DNA of 64,000 nt from Acidimicrobiia bacterium. Lineage in GTDB: Bacteria > Actinomycetota > Acidimicrobiia > IMCC26256 > JACDBD01. Location of the stretch: the NCBI GenBank assembly GCA_035316025.1, contig DATFXL010000126.1:10642-74641 (forward strand). The letters run 5' to 3'. Positions 56,594 through 64,000 of this stretch are shown here, one piece after another. A program made the translations under genes and the position numbers. The notes under the pieces were generated by a model. The model searched no databases, was not told the origin of the DNA, and was given only the letters and a program-made list of their open reading frames with translations. How positions within the stretch are numbered: position 1 is the stretch's first letter; each line of letters starts with the position of its first letter.

Positions 56594-57442
56594 CTAACGC
56601 TCCTGACCCCGCAGAAACGCCTCCAGGTCGGCGGCGAACTCGGCGTGGTGCTGGAACAGGAACCCGTGCGCCGAGTCCGGGTAGATCTTCACCTGCGCGT
56701 TCGGAAGCAGCCCGCCGAGGACGTAGGAGTAGCGGGGGAGGATCATCGGGTCGCTGTCGCCATTGGCGACGAACACCGGATGCCGGATGGCGCCGAGACG
56801 TTCGAGGAGCGAGTGGTCGGGGATGCCCCAGGTGCACACCGCGTCGTACTGGGCCAGCCTCGTCTGCCAGGTGGTCTGCTGGTCGGGGTCATTCGTTCTC
56901 CCGAAGATGCGCTGGAGCGTTTGCTGACCGGCCTGGCGGCTCGATGGCGACTTGGCGAAGAACACGTCGAGGTACCCGTCGGGGTTCGGCTGAGGTTGAC
57001 CGACGGCGTCGATCACCTCGGGCGCCCACCCGTGCATCTCCGGCGCGCCCTTCGGCGCCGAGGACGCGAGCACGATGTTGCGCGACAGCGCCGGCCGGAT
57101 GAGCGCGATCGCCTGGGCGACGAAGCTTCCGATGGAGTACCCGAGGACGTCGACCTGGTCGAGCTGCAACGCGTCGAGGAACGCGATCGCATCGCGCGCC
57201 ATCTGCTCGATCGTGTTCGGCGTCGCCCCTGTCGAACCGCCCACGCCGACATTGTCGAACGTGATGACCCGGCGAGCCGAGGCAAGTGCGTCGACGAGCG
57301 GCGGATCCCAGTAGTCGAGATTGCCGCGGAAGTGCTGGAGCAGGACCAGCGGCACGGTGCCGTCGCCGAGCTGGCGGTACACGTACTCGATGCCGTTCTC
57401 GGCGCCGATCCTCTGATTGGGAGACTCCGAGTACGTGTCCAT
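56594..57442 (-). CDS. alpha/beta hydrolase
   Basis: 282 aa. Nucleophile elbow GYSIGSF and C-terminal HGFLFQH. Confidence 0.8.
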   Translation of the reverse strand: MDTYSESPNQRIGAENGIEYVYRQLGDGTVPLVLLQHFRGNLDYWDPPLVDALASARRVITFDNVGVGGSTGATPNTIEQMARDAIAFLDALQLDQVDVLGYSIGSFVAQAIALIRPALSRNIVLASSAPKGAPEMHGWAPEVIDAVGQPQPNPDGYLDVFFAKSPSSRQAGQQTLQRIFGRTNDPDQQTTWQTRLAQYDAVCTWGIPDHSLLERLGAIRHPVFVANGDSDPMILPRYSYVLGGLLPNAQVKIYPDSAHGFLFQHHAEFAADLEAFLRGQER

Positions 57443-58004
57443 CGCTACGCCTCTTCGTGTCTTCGAGCCTTGATCGGTTGCGCCCCCGCCGGGATTCGAT
57501 CCTGCGCGGTCGAGGAAGAGGAGGGTCGCGTGCCGCGAACAGGCAGGTCAAGGAGCGACTCCGGGGACCGGCACAAACGCCGAACCTCGCTCACACCTTC
57601 CGGGCCGCGAGCAGTTCACCAGGGATCAAGGATCGGCCCTGACCCTGTCCGTCGCTCCTTGGTCAGCCGCCAGGGCGTTGCGAATCGGTCGAAGACATGG
57701 GGGTTGCGGCCGTCCCTGCCCGAGTTGCTCGGGATTTGTTCCTGTTCGGCGCCACGCCGAGGACGAGGTGTCGGGTACAATCCAAGCGTTAGCTTCGGCC
57801 GCGCGATCGCGGTACGAAGACGACGGTCACGGTACGGCCTTTCTCTGCTGCTCCCGCCCTGCGGGCAGTGTCCCGGGGATTCGGTTCGCCCCGCTGGACC
57901 TGTCCGCTTCGTTCCCATCACGCTGCTCGAGTTCGACACACGCAAACGTGGCCCGATTGCCGGGTACGAACACCGGCGGGATGACAACTGGCGAGGGAAT
58001 CACT

Positions 58005-58208
58005 ATGGCAACACAAGGCACCGTGAAATGGTTCAACTCCGAGAAGGGTTACGGCTTCATCCAGCGTGAAGGCGGCGACGACGTCTTTGTCCACTTCTCG
58101 GCGATTCAGGGCGAGGGCTATCGCTCCCTGGACGAGGGTCAGCGCGTCGAGTTCGACGTCGCCCCAGGCCGCAAGGGCGAGGAAGCCCAGAACGTTCGAG
58201 TCATCTGA
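58005..58208 (+). CDS. cspA: cold-shock protein (CspA family)
   Basis: 67 aa. [34 protein letters not shown] contains the RNP1 and RNP2 motifs. SD gaggga upstream. Confidence 0.95.
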
Positions 58209-58275
58209 CGAGGTATCCCACGGCGCTGGGCACGCCAGTGCCGCCTGGCGCCTCGCAAGGCGACAAGGAGAGCTC

Positions 58276-58449
58276 ATGGCGGGTCGGCAGCGGGCGTCAT
58301 TCCAAAAACGCGAACGCGAGCGGGCACGACAGGAAAAGCAAGCGGCCAAGCGGGCTCGCCGGCAGCACGACAGCCGGCAAGAGGCTGAGGAGTCGCCCGT
58401 CGGGCAGGGGGCGAAAGACGTAGAGCGCCTCGACAAGGCCGAGGGTTGA
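58276..58449 (+). CDS. hypothetical highly charged (R/K/E/Q-rich) micro-protein
   Basis: 57 aa. Strong SD aaggag 6 nt upstream of ATG 58276. Lies 67 nt downstream of csp on the same strand. Confidence 0.45.
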   Translation: MAGRQRASFQKRERERARQEKQAAKRARRQHDSRQEAEESPVGQGAKDVERLDKAEG

Positions 58450-58509
58450 TGTTCGAGCACCTCGTCGATCACCCGCTTCCCCAGGGGCATCTGTCGGCAG
58501 CGCTGGCGA

Positions 58510-59382
58510 TCAGACCGCGGCCGGCTCCTCGAAGTCGCCGCGCGAATCCGTCGCCGGTCCCGGTATGCGCACACGAGGCGGTGGCTCTCGCAGATCGCGC
58601 GCGACGCCGACGAGGCGCAACAGCTTGAGGGCGTAGTAGGTCACGTCGATCTCCCACCAGAAGAAGCCCTGGCGCGCGGCGGACGGGTAATGATGGTGGT
58701 TGTTGTGCCAGCCCTCGCCGCCGGTCAGCAACGCGACCAGGAGCGAGTTGCGGCTCGTGTCGGGGGTGTCATAACGACGGCGACCGAACACATGTGCAAG
58801 CGAGTTCACCGTGAACGTCGCATGCCACAGGAGCACGGTCGACAGGAAGAACCCGACAACAAGGCCGCTCCAACCGCCGACCACAAAGCAGACGACCCCG
58901 AGGGCCCACGGGGGAATCCAGTCGTGCCGATCGAGGAACCGCAGTTCGGGGTACCGGGCGAAGTCTCTGATCGATTCGACATCGGTACTGGAGTACTTGT
59001 CGCACAGGATCCATCCCACGTGGCTCCACCAGAACCCCTTGCGCGGCGAATGGATGTCGCGTGCGGTATCGGAGAAACGGTGGTGACGACGGTGGTATCC
59101 GGCCCACCACAGGACGCCCTTTTGGCATGCGGTCCCGCCGCCGAACGCCATCACGAACTGCGCCGACCGCCGGAGCTTGTAGCTGCGGTGCGCGAAGTAG
59201 CGGTGGTACCCGGCGGTAATGAAGAACAACCGCCCGAAGAACGTGACGAGCAAGAGCACCACCGCCGTCGTCGTCACGCCCGTCACGAACGCGAGCAGTG
59301 GCAGCAGGTGCAGCAGGAAGAAGGGGACGGACGAACCGACGTTGACCCGCTCGTCGGCCGATCGGCCTATGGCCTGGTCCAT
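58510..59382 (-). CDS. membrane acyl-CoA (delta-9 type) fatty acid desaturase
   Basis: 290 aa. Three histidine boxes HRYFAH, HRRHHRF and HNNHHHY. Confidence 0.9.
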   Translation of the reverse strand: MDQAIGRSADERVNVGSSVPFFLLHLLPLLAFVTGVTTTAVVLLLVTFFGRLFFITAGYHRYFAHRSYKLRRSAQFVMAFGGGTACQKGVLWWAGYHRRHHRFSDTARDIHSPRKGFWWSHVGWILCDKYSSTDVESIRDFARYPELRFLDRHDWIPPWALGVVCFVVGGWSGLVVGFFLSTVLLWHATFTVNSLAHVFGRRRYDTPDTSRNSLLVALLTGGEGWHNNHHHYPSAARQGFFWWEIDVTYYALKLLRLVGVARDLREPPPRVRIPGPATDSRGDFEEPAAV

Positions 59383-59406
59383 GCGAGATCCCTACTCCTC
59401 GGGTGC

Positions 59407-59426
59407 CCTACCTACCGGTAGGTAGG
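59407..59426. promoter_or_regulatory. perfect 20-bp palindrome CCTACCTACC|GGTAGGTAGG, candidate operator upstream of the desaturase
   Basis: Read directly from the sequence. It lies 25 nt upstream of the desaturase start codon (59382). Its function is an inference. Confidence 0.4.
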
Positions 59427-59580
59427 AAGCCACCCTAGGAGCCCGATGAACGTCGAGGCACATCGGGCGCGACCGGGGGCAGGCCGGCGAATCTCGGGTC
59501 AGAGCCGCTCCGTATTTACTCGGATCGGGCTTACCCTTCCGAATGGGCAGTTTCTGTGCAGCAGCCGCGGAAGGAGCCAG

Positions 59581-59847
59581 ATGCCAGTCGAGAGCTACGT
59601 CTACGAGTGCAACCGCTGTGGCGAACGAATCGAGGCTCCCCGGCCCATCTTCGACAAGAGCCTGTGCCCGCAGACCTCGCCGAGTGGGGCGCGCTGCCTC
59701 GGCCACCTCGAACTGATCGAACCTGACGCTGCGATCTCGGCGGGGCGGGTAGATCCGCCCGAGCCCCATTTCAAGGGCAGGAACCCGGAACGAGCGAGAA
59801 CGCAGCACCCCTCCATGCCGTCGCGTGGGAAGCCGTCCGTGAACTGA
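59581..59847 (+). CDS. hypothetical FmdB-like zinc-ribbon protein
   Basis: 88 aa from ATG 59581, with strong SD ggaaggag upstream. YVYECNRCGERIE resembles the FmdB YEYxCxxCGxxFE start. The second Cys pair is atypical (C29-x9-C39-x2-H42). High G/C third-position bias in the first 45 codons. Confidence 0.5.
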   Translation: MPVESYVYECNRCGERIEAPRPIFDKSLCPQTSPSGARCLGHLELIEPDAAISAGRVDPPEPHFKGRNPERARTQHPSMPSRGKPSVN

Positions 59848-60094
59848 CGCCCGGGCAAGCTCGTCGCAGCCATGGACACGGCTGGCCGCCCGCCACTCGG
59901 GATGTCCCGCACAATGTGCGCGCGCTTCCTTCTGCGAGTTGCGGCCCTGCACACACAACGACGCGCGGCTGCGACTCGCTCGCGCCAGATCGGCACACAG
60001 GTGGAAACGGCAAAGCACGCGGTCAGCCTGTAACGCACAACCCACCTGGAACGCTCTTTCGGCGAGAACCGCCGCACGCTTCTGGAGGCACTGC

Positions 60095-60652
60095 ATGCGT
60101 TGGCATCGCCGCGCCGCGTTGGCTGTCGCCGCCGCATCCGTGCTCATCGGCGTCGGCGGTGTCGCCCTTGCTGCGTCGACACACACGTTGCCGCTGACGG
60201 CCGGCCGAGATGAGGCGCCGAATCCCACGTCTGCCTCGCACGTCCCACGGATACCTCGGGGCGCCGGCACAGGCGAACCCGCAGCACCGACAGCGTCGGC
60301 ACCGTCCGCACCCGACCCTGCGAACACCCAAGGCCCCGACGCGACCGGACCCGCGAAATCCGGTCTCTGTACCGCGTACGCGTCGGGTCAGGGGGGCACG
60401 AACGGCAACAAGTTCGACTCGACGGCGTTCCAGGCGTTAGCGACCGCCGCTGGCGGCACCGCGAACATCGGCGCGTTTTGCGCCGACGTGTCCCCCGGTG
60501 GCAACGACAGACACACCGGAGCAACTCCGCCTGTATCAAAACCCGTCGGCGGTCCTGCAAATGCCGATGCAGCGAAGCATCCCAACTCGGCGAGCGACGC
60601 GCATGGTCCCCCGTCTGCCCCTGCAGGAAACGGCCAGAGCAACCGGCCGTGA
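60095..60652 (+). CDS. hypothetical secreted Pro/Ala/Gly-rich protein with a Cys-bracketed core
   Basis: 185 aa from ATG 60095, with SD ggagg upstream. Signal/TM segment AALAVAAASVLIGVGGVALAA. Core CTAYASGQGGTNGNKFDSTAFQALATAAGGTANIGAFC (C-x36-C). Confidence 0.55.
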   Translation: MRWHRRAALAVAAASVLIGVGGVALAASTHTLPLTAGRDEAPNPTSASHVPRIPRGAGTGEPAAPTASAPSAPDPANTQGPDATGPAKSGLCTAYASGQGGTNGNKFDSTAFQALATAAGGTANIGAFCADVSPGGNDRHTGATPPVSKPVGGPANADAAKHPNSASDAHGPPSAPAGNGQSNRP

Positions 60653-60673
60653 GCCGAACGACCCACGACCAGT

Positions 60674-60721
60674 CCTGAGCCCCTCTCGGCCGATGTCCGG
60701 TCGCCGGCCGAGAGGCTCAGG
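60674..60721 (+). terminator. long GC-rich hairpin (about 16 bp with one bulge) downstream of gene 60095..60652
   Basis: The arm cctgagcccctctcggcc (60674-60691) pairs with ggccgagaggctcagg (60706-60721). No U-tract. Confidence 0.45.
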
Positions 60722-60864
60722 GCGAAGCGCTTCTCACGAGCATGCCGGAGGAAGCTTGGGCTCACCTCCCGTTACCCGGATCGAGCCGGCGACGGTATGT
60801 CTCCATCAGAGGCGGATATGCGGCCGTCTTCGCTGCGCAGCCGAACGACGTCGAGGGGGTCACC

Positions 60865-61449
60865 ATGAACAACCCGACGACGCTGGTCGTCGCTATCGCT
60901 TTGGGCGTCATCGTCGGGCTTGTTGCCGGAATGGTCGGAATGGCCATGCTTCGCCGCGCCCGTCTGCGCAAGGAAGTGCGCGAGCTTGATCCGTGGTGGC
61001 AGTGGGAGAAGCAATGGTGGCGCCTGGAGATCGGTCTTCGGCGCATCGCTGCGATCTATGAGGGGCGACAGGTCGATTCAGCCGAGGCTTTGTACGACCT
61101 CCTGTCGTTCTTTCTGAACTGCCATCACTTTCGCGACTGGCTTGTCGCCGACAAACTGAGCCGGGTGTCCCGGAAGAGGGCAACTGAGGTGATCAAGACA
61201 TCGACGTACCTTCGCGTCTGCGCCGATCTTGCCAATCGCACAAGTCATGCGGCACTCACGGGGTGCGGGGTCGATAACGGCCCATTGCCATCGCGGCAGA
61301 GCGCCGATGTCCACGGCGGATCGGACGCCGCACACCGATGGGAGATCACAGCCGGTGATGCCGTCTATGACGCCTTCGATCTCGCGCTCAATTGTGTTGC
61401 TGAATGGGATAGAGCGCTCACCGGACGAGGGCTGCTCGACACGCGCTGA
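60865..61449 (+). CDS. hypothetical N-terminally anchored protein with a Trp-rich juxtamembrane segment
   Basis: 194 aa from ATG 60865, with SD gaggggg upstream. TM helix LVVAIALGVIVGLVAGMVGMAML, then DPWWQWEKQWWRLE. Codon third positions are noticeably T-rich compared with the rest of the window. Confidence 0.55.
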   Translation: MNNPTTLVVAIALGVIVGLVAGMVGMAMLRRARLRKEVRELDPWWQWEKQWWRLEIGLRRIAAIYEGRQVDSAEALYDLLSFFLNCHHFRDWLVADKLSRVSRKRATEVIKTSTYLRVCADLANRTSHAALTGCGVDNGPLPSRQSADVHGGSDAAHRWEITAGDAVYDAFDLALNCVAEWDRALTGRGLLDTR

Positions 61450-61525
61450 TCCGTCGGACACGGTTTCACGTATCCGTGCCCAAGACGCCTTCAATCAACC
61501 CGAACGTCCGTCAGCTGTTGCTCTG

Positions 61526-61562
61526 AAACGCCGTAGGCGGAGGCGCGGGGCTCGGCGTTTTT
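61526..61562 (+). terminator. hairpin plus T5 tract (aaacgccg ... cggcgttttt) between convergent genes
   Basis: The 8-bp stem 61526-61533 pairs with 61553-61560 and runs into ttttt (61558-61562). It sits between the stops at 61449 (+) and 61567 (-). Confidence 0.45.
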
Positions 61563-61566
61563 CAGG

Positions 61567-64000
61567 TCACGGGTTTTTTCCAGTGTCGACCCATCGCCGG
61601 AACGTGGTCACCCAGTCGTCGTTCCATGCGCCGTCACAGGGCATGGACCCTTGTCGCAGTCGTGTGAGGATGTCGTCGGCGTGTTGGGTGACATCGTCGC
61701 GTGACCAGAGGTCGAAGGCGAACTTCATTGATTGTTGGTCTTTGGCACGGAACAGAGGCTTGATGTGGCGGTCGAAGCTGACGGTCTCGTCGGGACCTGG
61801 CAAGACGATTGCGCCATGGTCAGTCTCGTCCGTCGCTTCTTGCGCTGGTACTCGGATCGTCGGGGGGCCGGCGGCGCCCCAGGTCCATTTGGGCACGGGC
61901 GCCTGTTCGGGCGGTTGGGTACCGGGCTGGGCGTTCTGGACTGCGATTCGTGAGCTCCATTCGAGGAATCCGGCAAATGCTGAGCGGAACTCGGGATCAC
62001 GGGGCAGGCCGGCGTCGTCGGCGGATCGCAGCATGAGGACGACCCATCGGGCCCGCTGTTCTTCGGTGTGCGCGTTGTCCAGATCGTGGTCGATCTGGGT
62101 GTGCACGCCTTGCTTCGGGGTGTCGCTCGTGGGGCCGCCGAACACCTCGGCGAGCTGTTCCGCGACGAGTTGCGGGTGGTCGGGGGTCATGTCGGCGAAG
62201 AGGGGGGCCAGGACGGGATCCTCGGGTGCGTATCGCTCATAGAAGAAGTGGGACATGCGGCTCAGCGCTGGGAGCCCACCGCACCATTCGAACAGGGTCG
62301 GCTCGTGGTCAGGGTCGGGCACCGGATCGTGGAAGTCGACGTACCAGTGCATGCCGCTACAGAACGGTTTGTTCTGCGAGTGACCGCAGCGGCAGAGCGC
62401 GTAGTGCTCGTGGGAGGCGCCGTGGTTACGGGTTAGCCGACCGTCGGAGACTTCGGCGAGCGCGATGCCTCCGGTGATGCGGTATGGGCCGTCCTTGGTG
62501 ACTTCGATGGTCGGGTCACGTTGGTCGTCCCAGTCGACGTGGCGACGCTGCTCGCGTGCGTCGAGCGCGTAGCTCAGAGCTCCCGATGGGCAATTGCGAA
62601 CGGCGCGGATGATCTCGTCCATGCGCCCGCCGCTGGGCGCCACGAAAGGCTCTTGGTCGACTCGGAACACGGCCGCGAGACGGTCGCTGCAGAGGCCGGA
62701 GTGCTGACAGGTGCCGCGATTGTCAAGGATCGTGACCTGGACCCCGTCGTAGGTGTCGCGACGGTCGGGGACGCGCTTGGGGTCCTTGGCGCTGCGGAAG
62801 CCGATGGCGGCGTGGGTGCCGTCGCAAAGAGGTTTGATCGCAGAGCCCCCGCATCGGCACAGGGCCATCTGGGGCCGAGTCGGAATGCCGCTGCCCAGCC
62901 AGTCTCGGAGGTTGGCGGGGTTGGTGACCAGGTATGGCCCGTCCGGGGCGGGTTCGATCCTGCTGTCGAGGCGCGTTTGCAGGCCGCGTAACTCGGCGAG
63001 CCGGGATGCGGCCTCTTCGGGCTCCGCCAGCTGGGTGGCGAGGTCCTGGAGAGCGGCCACGGCTTCCGTGAGCTGAGGTGGACTGGCCGTCCCGAGCGCG
63101 GCGCGCAGCGAGGTTGCCGTCGTGGTGATGGCCCACAGAGGATCTTGCGCGCTGTCGAGCTGCTTCCCGTCGTCGGCGTCGTGCCCGGCGACGTCGGTGG
63201 CGGCGGAATCGTGGAGGGCATCGGCGAAGGGGCGCAGCACGCTCTCGATCAACCGGCGAGCCGTGCCGACATCTGGCGCCCGGTCGTGGTCAGGGGACGT
63301 CAAGAGGCTCAGCGTGAGCTGCCGCGTCCGGTCGAACAGCGACCCGAGGTGGCCTGACGTGGAGGCGGAGGCGGCACGGCGGGCGAGTTCTTCGGTTCGG
63401 CCGCGCAGCGCCTGGAGGTCAGCCGCACCGGCTTGGACCGCGGCGGGTGGAACGGTGGAGAGATTCGTGCGTGCCCGTGCTCCCCAGTCCGGGAAATGGC
63501 TTTGGAGCTTCTGGACCATGTCGGTGAGGGCGGCGCCGATCGGCGCGAGTTCATTCCCTACGTCATCGGGCCATTTGGAGCGGACCCGCTCGCAGAACGC
63601 AGCCGCCTCGTCGAGGCGTTCGGCCAACAGCGCCCAGGCGGCTTCGCGGTGCGGCATGAGGTAGTCGCTCTCATAGAACAGCTCGAAGCTCGCCCCCGCG
63701 GTTCGCCCCTCGAACTCGGGGCCCACGGGACGGGTGGTCACGAGCTCGCCCAAGGGTTCGATCACCTGAAACATCAAGGCCAGGGTCACGTCGGCGAGCG
63801 TCGCCAACTCAGCATCGGTCTCCTCGGTGTGGGCGAAGTACCGCTCGAGGATCTGCAAGAGCACCTCGTAGGCGACGTTGAACAAGTCGACGCATCGGGC
63901 GGTGACCGTGTCCGTGATCAGCGCGACGTCGACTCCCCGTTCGTTCGGTCGAACGTTGGCCGCCATGACCGGGCGGACGGGATCGAACTTCGGGTTCGCA
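61567..64000 (-). CDS. multidomain metalloprotein: ferritin-like region, CDGSH, ferredoxin-like Cys cluster, CDGSH, truncated-globin-like domain, unassigned C-terminal module; 5' end probably outside the window
   Basis: ORF 61567..63966 (799 aa). The reading frame stays open upstream of the first ATG to nt 64000 (ANPKFDPVRPV-MAANVRPNERG). Motifs: CRCGGSAIKPLCDGTH, TCQHSGLC...NCPSGAL, CRCGHSQNKPFCSGMH, TLFEWCGGLPALSRMSHFFYERY..., HIKPLFRAKDQQSMKFAFDLW...MPCDGAW. Confidence 0.8.
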   Translation of the reverse strand, partial: ANPKFDPVRPVMAANVRPNERGVDVALITDTVTARCVDLFNVAYEVLLQILERYFAHTEETDAELATLADVTLALMFQVIEPLGELVTTRPVGPEFEGRTAGASFELFYESDYLMPHREAAWALLAERLDEAAAFCERVRSKWPDDVGNELAPIGAALTDMVQKLQSHFPDWGARARTNLSTVPPAAVQAGAADLQALRGRTEELARRAASASTSGHLGSLFDRTRQLTLSLLTSPDHDRAPDVGTARRLIESVLRPFADALHDSAATDVAGHDADDGKQLDSAQDPLWAITTTATSLRAALGTASPPQLTEAVAALQDLATQLAEPEEAASRLAELRGLQTRLDSRIEPAPDGPYLVTNPANLRDWLGSGIPTRPQMALCRCGGSAIKPLCDGTHAAIGFRSAKDPKRVPDRRDTYDGVQVTILDNRGTCQHSGLCSDRLAAVFRVDQEPFVAPSGGRMDEIIRAVRNCPSGALSYALDAREQRRHVDWDDQRDPTIEVTKDGPYRITGGIALAEVSDGRLTRNHGASHEHYALCRCGHSQNKPFCSGMHWYVDFHDPVPDPDHEPTLFEWCGGLPALSRMSHFFYERYAPEDPVLAPLFADMTPDHPQLVAEQLAEVFGGPTSDTPKQGVHTQIDHDLDNAHTEEQRARWVVLMLRSADDAGLPRDPEFRSAFAGFLEWSSRIAVQNAQPGTQPPEQAPVPKWTWGAAGPPTIRVPAQEATDETDHGAIVLPGPDETVSFDRHIKPLFRAKDQQSMKFAFDLWSRDDVTQHADDILTRLRQGSMPCDGAWNDDWVTTFRRWVDTGKNP

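Follow-up and report, generated by a model that had tools for sequence, protein, structure and literature searches.

In type 7 CISD proteins of subtype CDC, two CDGSH motifs are arranged around a DUF1271 domain and show homology to type 4 CISDs (Lin et al. 2011, PMC3174974); the CDGSH-DUF1271-CDGSH order is a recognised redox unit (PMC3174974). Two proteins, E. coli YjdI and a class E flavodiiron protein, bind a [3Fe-4S] cluster at the motif of the central domain, now called Fer4_19; in the second of them Fer4_19 serves as the electron-input domain of a di-iron enzyme that reduces O2, a precedent for such a fusion (bioRxiv 10.1101/2024.04.03.587993). The arrangement has also been described as 'class II CDGSH with Fer4_19 in the middle' (Sengupta et al. 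2018, PMC5859297), and surveys mention CDGSH together with Fer4_19 and with ferritin-like domains (PMC5859297, PMC3174974). The DNA analysed here (the window) is a stretch of 64,000 nucleotides from an Acidimicrobiia bacterium (assembly GCA_035316025.1, contig DATFXL010000126.1, positions 10,642 to 74,641), and at its end lies the 3' part of a gene for a metalloprotein of 1091 amino acids. This protein joins a ferritin-like N-terminal domain related to VioB, StaD and RebD (the N-domain), a helical linker, a CDGSH-Fer4_19-CDGSH unit, a truncated-globin domain, a spacer and a C-terminal module (the C-module), and it may be a redox enzyme in which iron-sulfur (Fe-S) clusters serve a metal site of the N-domain. 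Each component is of a known family, and the full architecture is common, not unique, yet uncharacterised. No functional study of the family, and no description of the five-part architecture, of the relation between its long and short forms or of the C-module, was found in the searchable literature, which agrees with an earlier note, made by a model from the letters of this DNA, that knew of no characterised protein with the full combination.

The reading frame of the gene runs on the minus strand from 63999 down to a stop codon at 61567-61569 and continues past the window edge, with 810 open codons inside the window. Its first ATG, at 63966, defines the 799-amino-acid open reading frame (ORF) that the earlier note had described as running off the edge without its true N-terminus, and a GC content of 0.81 at third codon positions gives the frame a coding signature. 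The start codon and the first 281 codons lie outside the window, and the 281 missing N-terminal residues were recovered from a full-length metagenomic protein, P0001 (1091 amino acids), which is 99% identical to the window protein and differs from it by seven substitutions, all within the linker. A Pfam scan of the window protein returned zf-CDGSH twice (E 4.6e-30) and Fer4_19 (E 2.5e-17). All of the peptides quoted in the earlier note are found in the translation at the positions it gave, and the domain order it proposed is correct, the fusion being genuine and conserved across homologues.

The gene is intact and the fusion is not an assembly artefact. A long, modular ORF in a metagenomic window might be thought to reflect separate genes joined by mis-assembly or by a sequencing frameshift, but contigs from four independent soil runs tile positions 60500-64000 with zero indels and cover every domain junction, where the earlier note had wanted mis-assembly to be excluded. 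The same domain order is also found in more than 100 full-length proteins, and, with each species represented by one genome, at least 588 genomes were found to encode relatives, a complete Nocardia chromosome among them; this leaves the artefact practically no chance of being the explanation. Hosts fall in the Acidimicrobiales, Solirubrobacterales, Streptosporangiaceae, Pseudonocardiaceae and Candidatus Dormiibacterota, with Nocardia concava, N. terrae and Trebonia kvetii among those in culture. Among the best 120 of more than 3,000 relatives from a protein search, over 100 are proteins of about 1,000-1,130 amino acids with PF12902, PF06902 and PF09360 and mostly PF01152 as well, while a few shorter entries appear truncated. 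With thousands of database proteins, the combination does not have the rarity that had been implied for it, and automatic annotation at the Joint Genome Institute (JGI) already names such proteins 'CDGSH-type Zn-finger protein/truncated hemoglobin YjbI/ferredoxin'. Many independent soil-metagenome runs contain the sequence of the window. In three runs, contig word-depth over positions 62255-62371 reaches 67-251x against a background of about 5-20x; this stretch codes for the last part of the invariant second CDGSH motif and the first part of the globin domain (NKPFCSGMHWYVDF...EPTLFEWCGGLP), and the spike suggests that its nucleotide sequence is common to many co-occurring genomes, which seems a sign of the abundance of the family in soil.

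The Fe-S unit is a canonical type 7, subtype CDC CISD, for which cluster binding is predicted from its ligands. As in the described proteins, two CDGSH motifs flank Fer4_19, type 4 CISD homology is detected (family profile against structure 3tbm_A, E 1.1e-11, profile positions 776-837) and all cluster ligands are present. The first motif, CRCGGSAIKPLCDGTH, lies at 62812-62859, exactly where the earlier note had placed a canonical CDGSH, with ligands Cys381, Cys383, Cys392 and His396 (window numbering). The single-cluster ferredoxin-like segment that it had seen is Fer4_19, which spans window residues 417-478 and has the motif C431-x-H433-x3-C437-x32-C470-P471, invariant in 111 sequences. The second motif, CRCGHSQNKPFCSGMH, at 62347-62394, had been called degenerate, but its CSGMH variant (CRCGHSQNKPFCSGMHW) and its four ligands (C536, C538, C547 and H551, window numbering) are invariant in the 111 homologues, and it is the most conserved motif. 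A set of three Cys and one His is present in each CDGSH motif of the window protein, the 11 Cys/His ligands made up of those of the second CDGSH motif, those of Fer4_19 and the three Cys of the first motif are invariant in the same homologues, and column conservation over the whole unit is 0.74-0.85.

The unit departs from the described CDC proteins in three respects: it is an internal cassette of a 1091-residue protein and not a small stand-alone protein, its second motif is the invariant CSGMH instead of CDGSH, and the fourth ligand of its first motif alternates across the family between His (60/111, including the window protein) and Cys (51/111) beside three invariant Cys. This fourth ligand (His396, codon 62812-62814; residue 677 of P0001) covaries with the proximal His of the globin, HisF8: Cys occurs with HisF8 in 50 proteins and without it in one, and His occurs with HisF8 in 40 and without it in 20. 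The pattern could reflect redox tuning linked to haem or plain phylogeny.

The N-domain is a homologue of the C-terminal third of VioB. In P0001, PF12902 matches residues 48-270 (E 1e-43, 150 bits), wholly upstream of the window, and for this reason the Pfam scan of the window protein gave no PF12902 match. The earlier note had assigned amino acids 1-170 to a PF12902-type region; the window residues 1-131 do belong to the same ferritin-like/VioB-type domain, but as its C-terminal continuation, with PF12902 proper lying upstream. Residues 33-385 of P0001 align with positions 594-937 of the NCBIfam VioB model (TIGR04492, E 5.8e-17), and window residues 5-105 with VioB positions 842-938 (E 0.015). 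The equivalog test failed, with 60.8 bits against a cutoff of 1250 and no match outside model positions 594-937. When the AlphaFold2 (AF2) model was searched with Foldseek, it matched 3hl1 (E 2e-5, template-modelling (TM) score 0.64), indicating a ferritin-like helical-bundle fold; a sequence-profile search of the PDB with the N-domain gave no match, and 3hl1 surfaced only by Foldseek. ExxH and QGEG motifs and the 3hl1 fold are common to the N-domain, to VioB, which belongs with StaD and RebD to the iminophenyl-pyruvate dimer synthases (PF12902; InterPro VioB/RebD domain), and to CC_0557, the structural-genomics protein of PDB 3hl1. Unlike VioB, the protein described here lacks the first ~590 positions of the model, is fused to Fe-S, globin and C-module parts and has no violacein or indolocarbazole gene context.

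Column conservation in the N-domain is 0.85, and 0.81 in its window part, against 0.49 in the linker. The window part carries the invariant motifs DLFN..YE...ERYFAHTEE and FELFYE.DYLMPH, and across the 111 homologues E53xxH56, E99xxH102 and further His and Glu residues of the domain are invariant. A distant paralogue, P0250, keeps E55, E99xxH102, QGEG, H265 and H338. A di-iron site in the N-domain is plausible, although only part of the ExxH/Glu/His set is kept in this paralogue.

At the other end of the protein, the ~70 residues that the earlier note could not assign form an autonomous domain for which Pfam and NCBIfam hold no model; a profile built from 20 copies gave nothing credible against either library at permissive E-values. 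The consensus is F-x7-F-R-x2-D-x3-M...D-L...V...I...M-P-C-D-G-x-W...F-x2-W, and modelled alone by AF2 the module forms five short helices with a predicted local distance difference test score (pLDDT) of 83. An exhaustive profile search of 1.84 billion cluster representatives gave matches in 2,031 protein clusters, with E <=1e-10 for 929. Among the best 150 matches, 98 are proteins of 140 amino acids or fewer with a single copy, some of which may be contig-edge fragments of the long form, and tandem arrays also exist, for example five copies in P0121. In four proteins (P0179, P0185, P0200 and P0221) a pair of C-modules stands directly N-terminal of a haem-oxygenase-like 'iron-containing redox enzyme' domain, PF14518, with flavin amine-oxidase and DOMON domains elsewhere on the chain. 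In the pairs beside PF14518, the first copy has MPKD and the second MPCDG. In P0250, two C-modules precede PF12902 and a VioA-like flavin amine oxidase is present as well, a combination that looks like a VioA+VioB-style fusion.

In the PDB, the C-module profile matched residues 659-711 of AsqI (5yy2, E 4.8e-5), a tyrosinase/haemocyanin-like cyclopenase, with the pattern F..I...F...D...M....DL..Y..V..HA..I.......MP.; AsqI is a fungal Zn enzyme and lacks the Cys of the MPCDG motif, and the paper on AsqI does not mention its C-terminal region or a function for it. Every context retains F, F-R, D, M, D-L, V, I, M-P, W, F and W; MPCDG does not always have its Cys. A Foldseek search of the PDB with the isolated AF2 model found no match (best E 6.4). 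A likeness to PSCyt1, a haem-less cytochrome-c-like domain, was dropped as there is no Pfam match behind it.

The two ends of the protein also occur together without its middle. P0256 (554 amino acids) is 67% identical to P0001 over residues 4-458 and then passes directly into a C-module (43% identical); the helical linker and the Fe-S and globin parts are all absent. This short form of about 550 amino acids is abundant, with at least 120 clusters at 90% identity, one of them from a metagenome-assembled genome of the Gaiellaceae. Its abundance argues for the N-domain and the C-module as the core of the family, and for the Fe-S/globin cassette as an electron-transfer arm inserted between them. 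No CDGSH, Fer4_19 or globin genes adjoin the short form in the three loci inspected, so that the adjacency of ferritin-like and CDGSH/4Fe-4S genes mentioned in the earlier note was not seen there. Among these loci (L082, 6054-6962; L083, 6235-6912; L084, 6119-6958), L082 and L084 have an alpha/beta-hydrolase gene about 40 nucleotides upstream on the same strand, and the third has an FMN-reductase/flavodoxin-2 gene with PMSR and AhpD-like genes upstream. These upstream genes may be operon partners or electron donors.

The domain that follows the Fe-S unit has the fold of group II (O-type) truncated haemoglobins (trHbs), a class of which chimeric members are already known, such as the trHb-monooxygenase fusion of S. 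avermitilis. The family profile matched the group II structures 5d1v, 2bmm, 4uzv and 1ux8 (E 1e-10 to 2e-6), and the AF2 model gave target-normalised TM scores of 0.78-0.83 against 5d1v, 2bmm, 5v3t and 1ux8, indicating a 2-on-2 fold. Together with this fold, TyrB10 (107/111 members; Y587 in the window protein) and TrpG8 (111/111; W652) are common to the domain and to B. subtilis YjbI (1ux8), the T. fusca protein (2bmm) and M. tuberculosis HbO (1ngk). The truncated-globin segment of the earlier note is thus right as to fold, but in the window protein Bac_globin (PF01152) scores below threshold (E 0.099, 13.3 bits against a cutoff of 21) and the F8 His is displaced. In most of the family HisF8 is retained and the Pfam score exceeds the cutoff, as in P0010 and P0036 with 40.2 and 36.5 bits. 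Compared with the solved group II proteins, the globin here is internal to a large fusion, and in the window copy F8 is Asp and the pre-F region is rewritten.

The F8 column holds His in 90 of the 111 members, and the 21 without it show at least four local patterns (Gly, Tyr, deletions and a His shifted by one). In the window protein the column has Asp639, with His638 one residue earlier (codons 62083-62088, His-Asp in place of Gln-His), as seen from ...QIDHDLDN... against ...QIDQHLDN... in the sister protein P0002. Members of the clade of the window protein (P0001-P0005) show pairwise identities of 0.92 over the N-domain and 0.91 over the CISD unit but only 0.70 over the globin, close to the 0.74 of the linker, with 0.50 over the pre-F/F segment; in a sister clade the globin (0.86) is about as conserved as the N-domain (0.87). 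The AF2 model is least confident in the pre-F/F region, with pLDDT below 50 at residues 909-916. The Asp in the F8 column and the linker-like divergence of the domain make haem binding by the window copy doubtful, and the absence of the F8 His from 21 of the 111 members, together with the fast divergence of the globin in this clade, indicates that haem is dispensable for the core function of the family. A small clade (P0052, P0062, P0078 and P0080) has Tyr in the F8 column (AISQYL), with Tyr-ligated haem or a further independent loss of haem binding as possibilities.

The favoured reading, given slightly less than an even chance of being right, is that the protein is a cytoplasmic multi-centre redox enzyme with a core of N-domain and C-module and an inserted Fe-S/globin electron-transfer arm. 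The VioB-type ferritin-like N-domain would be catalytic, working with the C-module and carrying a predicted His/Glu-ligated metal site that probably activates O2 or H2O2 on a substrate. The cassette between the two core parts, composed of the helical linker, the CDC unit and the group II truncated globin, would be a built-in arm feeding or draining the catalytic site, with two [2Fe-2S] clusters around a [3Fe-4S]-type cluster of Fer4_19 forming an intramolecular wire. Where the proximal His is kept, the globin haem would be an extra or optional redox or gas-binding terminus; the window copy, in which the Fe-S sites are intact, the haem ligand is displaced and the globin is drifting, would probably use the Fe-S chain and the N-domain only. 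Which metal the N-domain binds, which way the electrons flow and what the substrate is are matters of prediction, as is the location, which is probably cytoplasmic as no hydrophobic stretch was noticed on reading the N-terminus of P0001.

In favour of such an enzyme, the N-domain and the Fe-S ligands are the most conserved parts of the protein, and the C-module recurs beside the putative metallo-oxidase scaffolds PF14518 and PF12902 and in the tyrosinase-like AsqI. Pfam scans detected no signalling output domain and no flavin/NAD reductase domain, and the gene neighbourhoods contain no conserved operon partner. The design is like that of rubrerythrin and of class E flavodiiron proteins, in which one chain joins a di-iron O2/H2O2 site to a small Fe-S domain, Fer4_19 itself in the latter. 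Pfam found no rubrerythrin, rubredoxin, metallo-beta-lactamase or flavodoxin domain here, and the likeness is one of design and not of homology.

Several observations weigh against this enzyme. The short form might have been derived by deletion and not be an ancestral core. The classical di-iron pattern E / ExxH / E / ExxH is not cleanly present in the N-domain, and E53, H56 and E326 are not kept in P0250. Since enzymes of the VioB family contain haem, the N-domain too could bind it instead of di-iron. The cofactor assignments are drawn from sequence and predicted structure, and the predicted TM score (pTM) of the AF2 model, 0.54, is low for judging distances between centres or docking of the C-module on the N-domain. 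No external electron donor was identified in the neighbourhoods of 76 loci, which give almost no functional hint beyond a LysR gene in 21 of them.

The earlier note had proposed a self-contained relay of di-iron, Fe-S and haem sites for O2/NO sensing or detoxification. The Fe-S part of the relay stands, with intact ligands; haem is doubtful in the window copy and the di-iron ligand set is only partly conserved in P0250. As a detoxifier, the protein would be centred on haem, with the globin acting as a nitric oxide (NO) dioxygenase or peroxidase and the Fe-S and di-iron sites re-reducing it in the manner of flavohaemoglobin. The well-kept group II fold, with TrpG8 invariant, TyrB10 nearly so and HisF8 in most members, accords with this, as do the position of the Fe-S sites directly N-terminal of the globin and the PMSR, AhpD-like and FMN-reductase genes beside one short form, which suggest an oxidative-stress theme. 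However, such a role is unlikely: 21 of 111 members, the window copy among them, have lost or shifted the F8 His, in at least four ways, the globin of the window clade diverges at the rate of a linker, and no FAD/NAD(P)H reductase domain like that of flavohaemoglobin-type NO dioxygenases, from which the haem would draw electrons, was detected in Pfam scans of the window protein and full-length relatives. It is further weakened by the abundant short form, which keeps only the ferritin-like domain and the C-module and has neither globin nor Fe-S sites. There is but a small chance of the sensing role, which would need a regulatory output that responds to a ligand on the haem or to oxidised Fe-S clusters. 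Other proteins do sense by means of CDGSH clusters and globins, and a LysR gene lies divergently upstream in some loci; yet no DNA-binding, kinase, cyclase, methyl-accepting chemotaxis protein or other output domain was found in the 1091 residues, nor any output domain of globin-coupled sensors in Pfam and NCBIfam scans, and the globin is of the T family, whereas globin-coupled sensors belong to the S family. Moreover, the most conserved part of the protein is an enzyme-like, VioB-homologous domain of 400 amino acids, and the LysR regulator is of a generic type that ordinarily adjoins enzymes.

Two other readings take their lead from the N-domain. Its homology to VioB positions 594-937, and the joining in P0250 of a VioA-like flavin amine oxidase, C-modules and PF12902, would fit a secondary-metabolite enzyme that couples imines or aromatic substrates oxidatively, as VioB does. 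This is quite improbable given a score of 61 bits against an equivalog cutoff of 1250, the absence of the first 590 VioB positions, the typically monocistronic gene with no biosynthetic genes flanking it in 76 loci, and a broad, apparently vertical spread in soil Actinomycetota that is atypical of enzymes from biosynthetic gene clusters. The ferritin-like superfamily fold might alternatively point to iron handling, either as ferritin-like oxidation and storage coupled to iron release by Fe-S or haem sites, by analogy with bacterioferritin (Bfr) and Bfd, or with the CDGSH unit as a labile cluster donor. The CDGSH clusters of mitoNEET are labile, and haem, di-iron and [2Fe-2S] centres come together in Bfr-Bfd. 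This role has the slightest chance of those considered for the intact protein, since the N-domain is an elaborated bundle near VioB and 3hl1 and not a cage-forming ferritin, Dps and ferritin being marginal Foldseek matches (E >0.4), and no iron-regulated context was seen in the neighbourhoods. In mitoNEET, Cys in place of the fourth His ligand stabilises the cluster, so the Cys found at this position of the first CDGSH motif in 51 of 111 members argues for electron transfer over cluster donation.

The enzyme with a wired metal site can be extended to a wider, speculative proposal. The long form would be self-contained as a redox enzyme and carry as many as five metal centres: two [2Fe-2S] clusters and one [3Fe-4S] cluster would connect a metal site of VioB type with a trHb haem, for an undescribed O2-, H2O2- or NO-dependent reaction widespread in soil Actinomycetota. 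The C-module would be a new domain family and an obligate partner of dinuclear-metal oxidase scaffolds (PF12902, PF14518 and tyrosinase-like), delivering, for instance, a substrate, a partner or a metal. That both parts of this proposal hold together is rather doubtful.

Table 1. Features of the gene and its surroundings, in window coordinates.
Feature	Position	Strand	Remarks
3' part of the gene	61567..63999	-	2,433 nt, 810 codons + stop, of a ~3.28-kb gene; residues 282-1091 of the 1091-aa multi-domain metalloprotein
C-terminal third of the ferritin-like/VioB-RebD-type N-domain	63607..63999	-	window aa 1-131 = P0001 282-412
Helical linker	62968..63606	-	window aa 132-344; Ala/Leu-rich, poorly conserved (0.49); long helices in AF2 model
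First CDGSH domain	62752..62967	-	zf-CDGSH; matches solved CDGSH proteins
Fer4_19 (formerly DUF1271) single-cluster ferredoxin-like domain	62566..62751	-	PF06902, 63.1 bits against a cutoff of 24
Second CDGSH domain	62317..62565	-	best-scoring CDGSH stretch aa 503-552; 3tbm profile match
Group II (O-type) truncated-haemoglobin-fold domain	61927..62316	-	window aa 562-691; TyrB10 and TrpG8 present
Spacer	61783..61926	-	window aa 692-739; Pro-rich, poorly conserved (0.57); pLDDT <50 at P0001 997-1009
C-terminal helical module	61570..61782	-	~70 aa; autonomous domain without Pfam/NCBIfam model
Fatty-acid desaturase gene	58510-59382	-	
Cold-shock-domain ORF	57678-58208	+	cold-shock domain = last 63 codons
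Alpha/beta-hydrolase gene	56594-57547	-	

Downstream of the gene, positions 59392-61560 have weak codon periodicity and hold hypothetical ORFs only, with no Pfam or PHROG matches and no meaningful repeats. The lower-GC patch reported in the earlier note is present here but modest (0.60-0.62 against 0.65-0.70), and the stretch may be a small variable island. Inside it, at 60682-60722, the contigs of four independent soil runs all break and pass into two or three different continuations, marking a strain-variable junction. Beyond it lie the fatty-acid desaturase, cold-shock and alpha/beta-hydrolase genes (Table 1). Since the cold-shock domain is confined to the end of its ORF, the real gene probably has ~67 codons, and around it, at 57450-58500, is a second stretch without clear third-position GC periodicity. 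Elsewhere, 21 of 76 loci, belonging to several orders (including L002, L010, L012, L021, L030, L057, L059, L060 and L065), have a LysR-family regulator gene beside the long-form gene, mostly divergent and immediately upstream; by NCBIfam cutoffs it is generic, being neither OxyR nor a member of another named subfamily. Clustering of the 76 neighbourhoods found no conserved operon, and the long-form gene otherwise looks monocistronic. A CysRS-like ligase, a NERD protein, an SDR and an MFS transporter each recur in only 8-10 of the 76 loci, which look like lineage synteny.

The family is concentrated in abundant, mostly uncultured soil Actinomycetota, namely the Solirubrobacterales, Acidimicrobiales and Streptosporangiaceae, with the Gaiellaceae for the short form, and it offers a tractable entry into aerobic soil redox biochemistry, with up to five predicted metal centres on one chain. 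It bears on the structure-function question of the ferritin-like domain of VioB, StaD and RebD. A tardigrade 'ferritin-like phosphatase' paper was set aside in this connection, as, by its description, it appears to concern another ferritin-like family, with no mention of PF12902, 3HL1 or VioB. The analysis also reveals a ~70-amino-acid domain, present in about 2,000 protein clusters, for which neither Pfam nor NCBIfam has a model. Furthermore, the His/Cys switch at one CDGSH site and the repeated loss of the globin proximal His amount to a natural 'mutagenesis' of ligands, and a natural minimal form together with cultured hosts (Nocardia and Trebonia) makes the family experimentally approachable.

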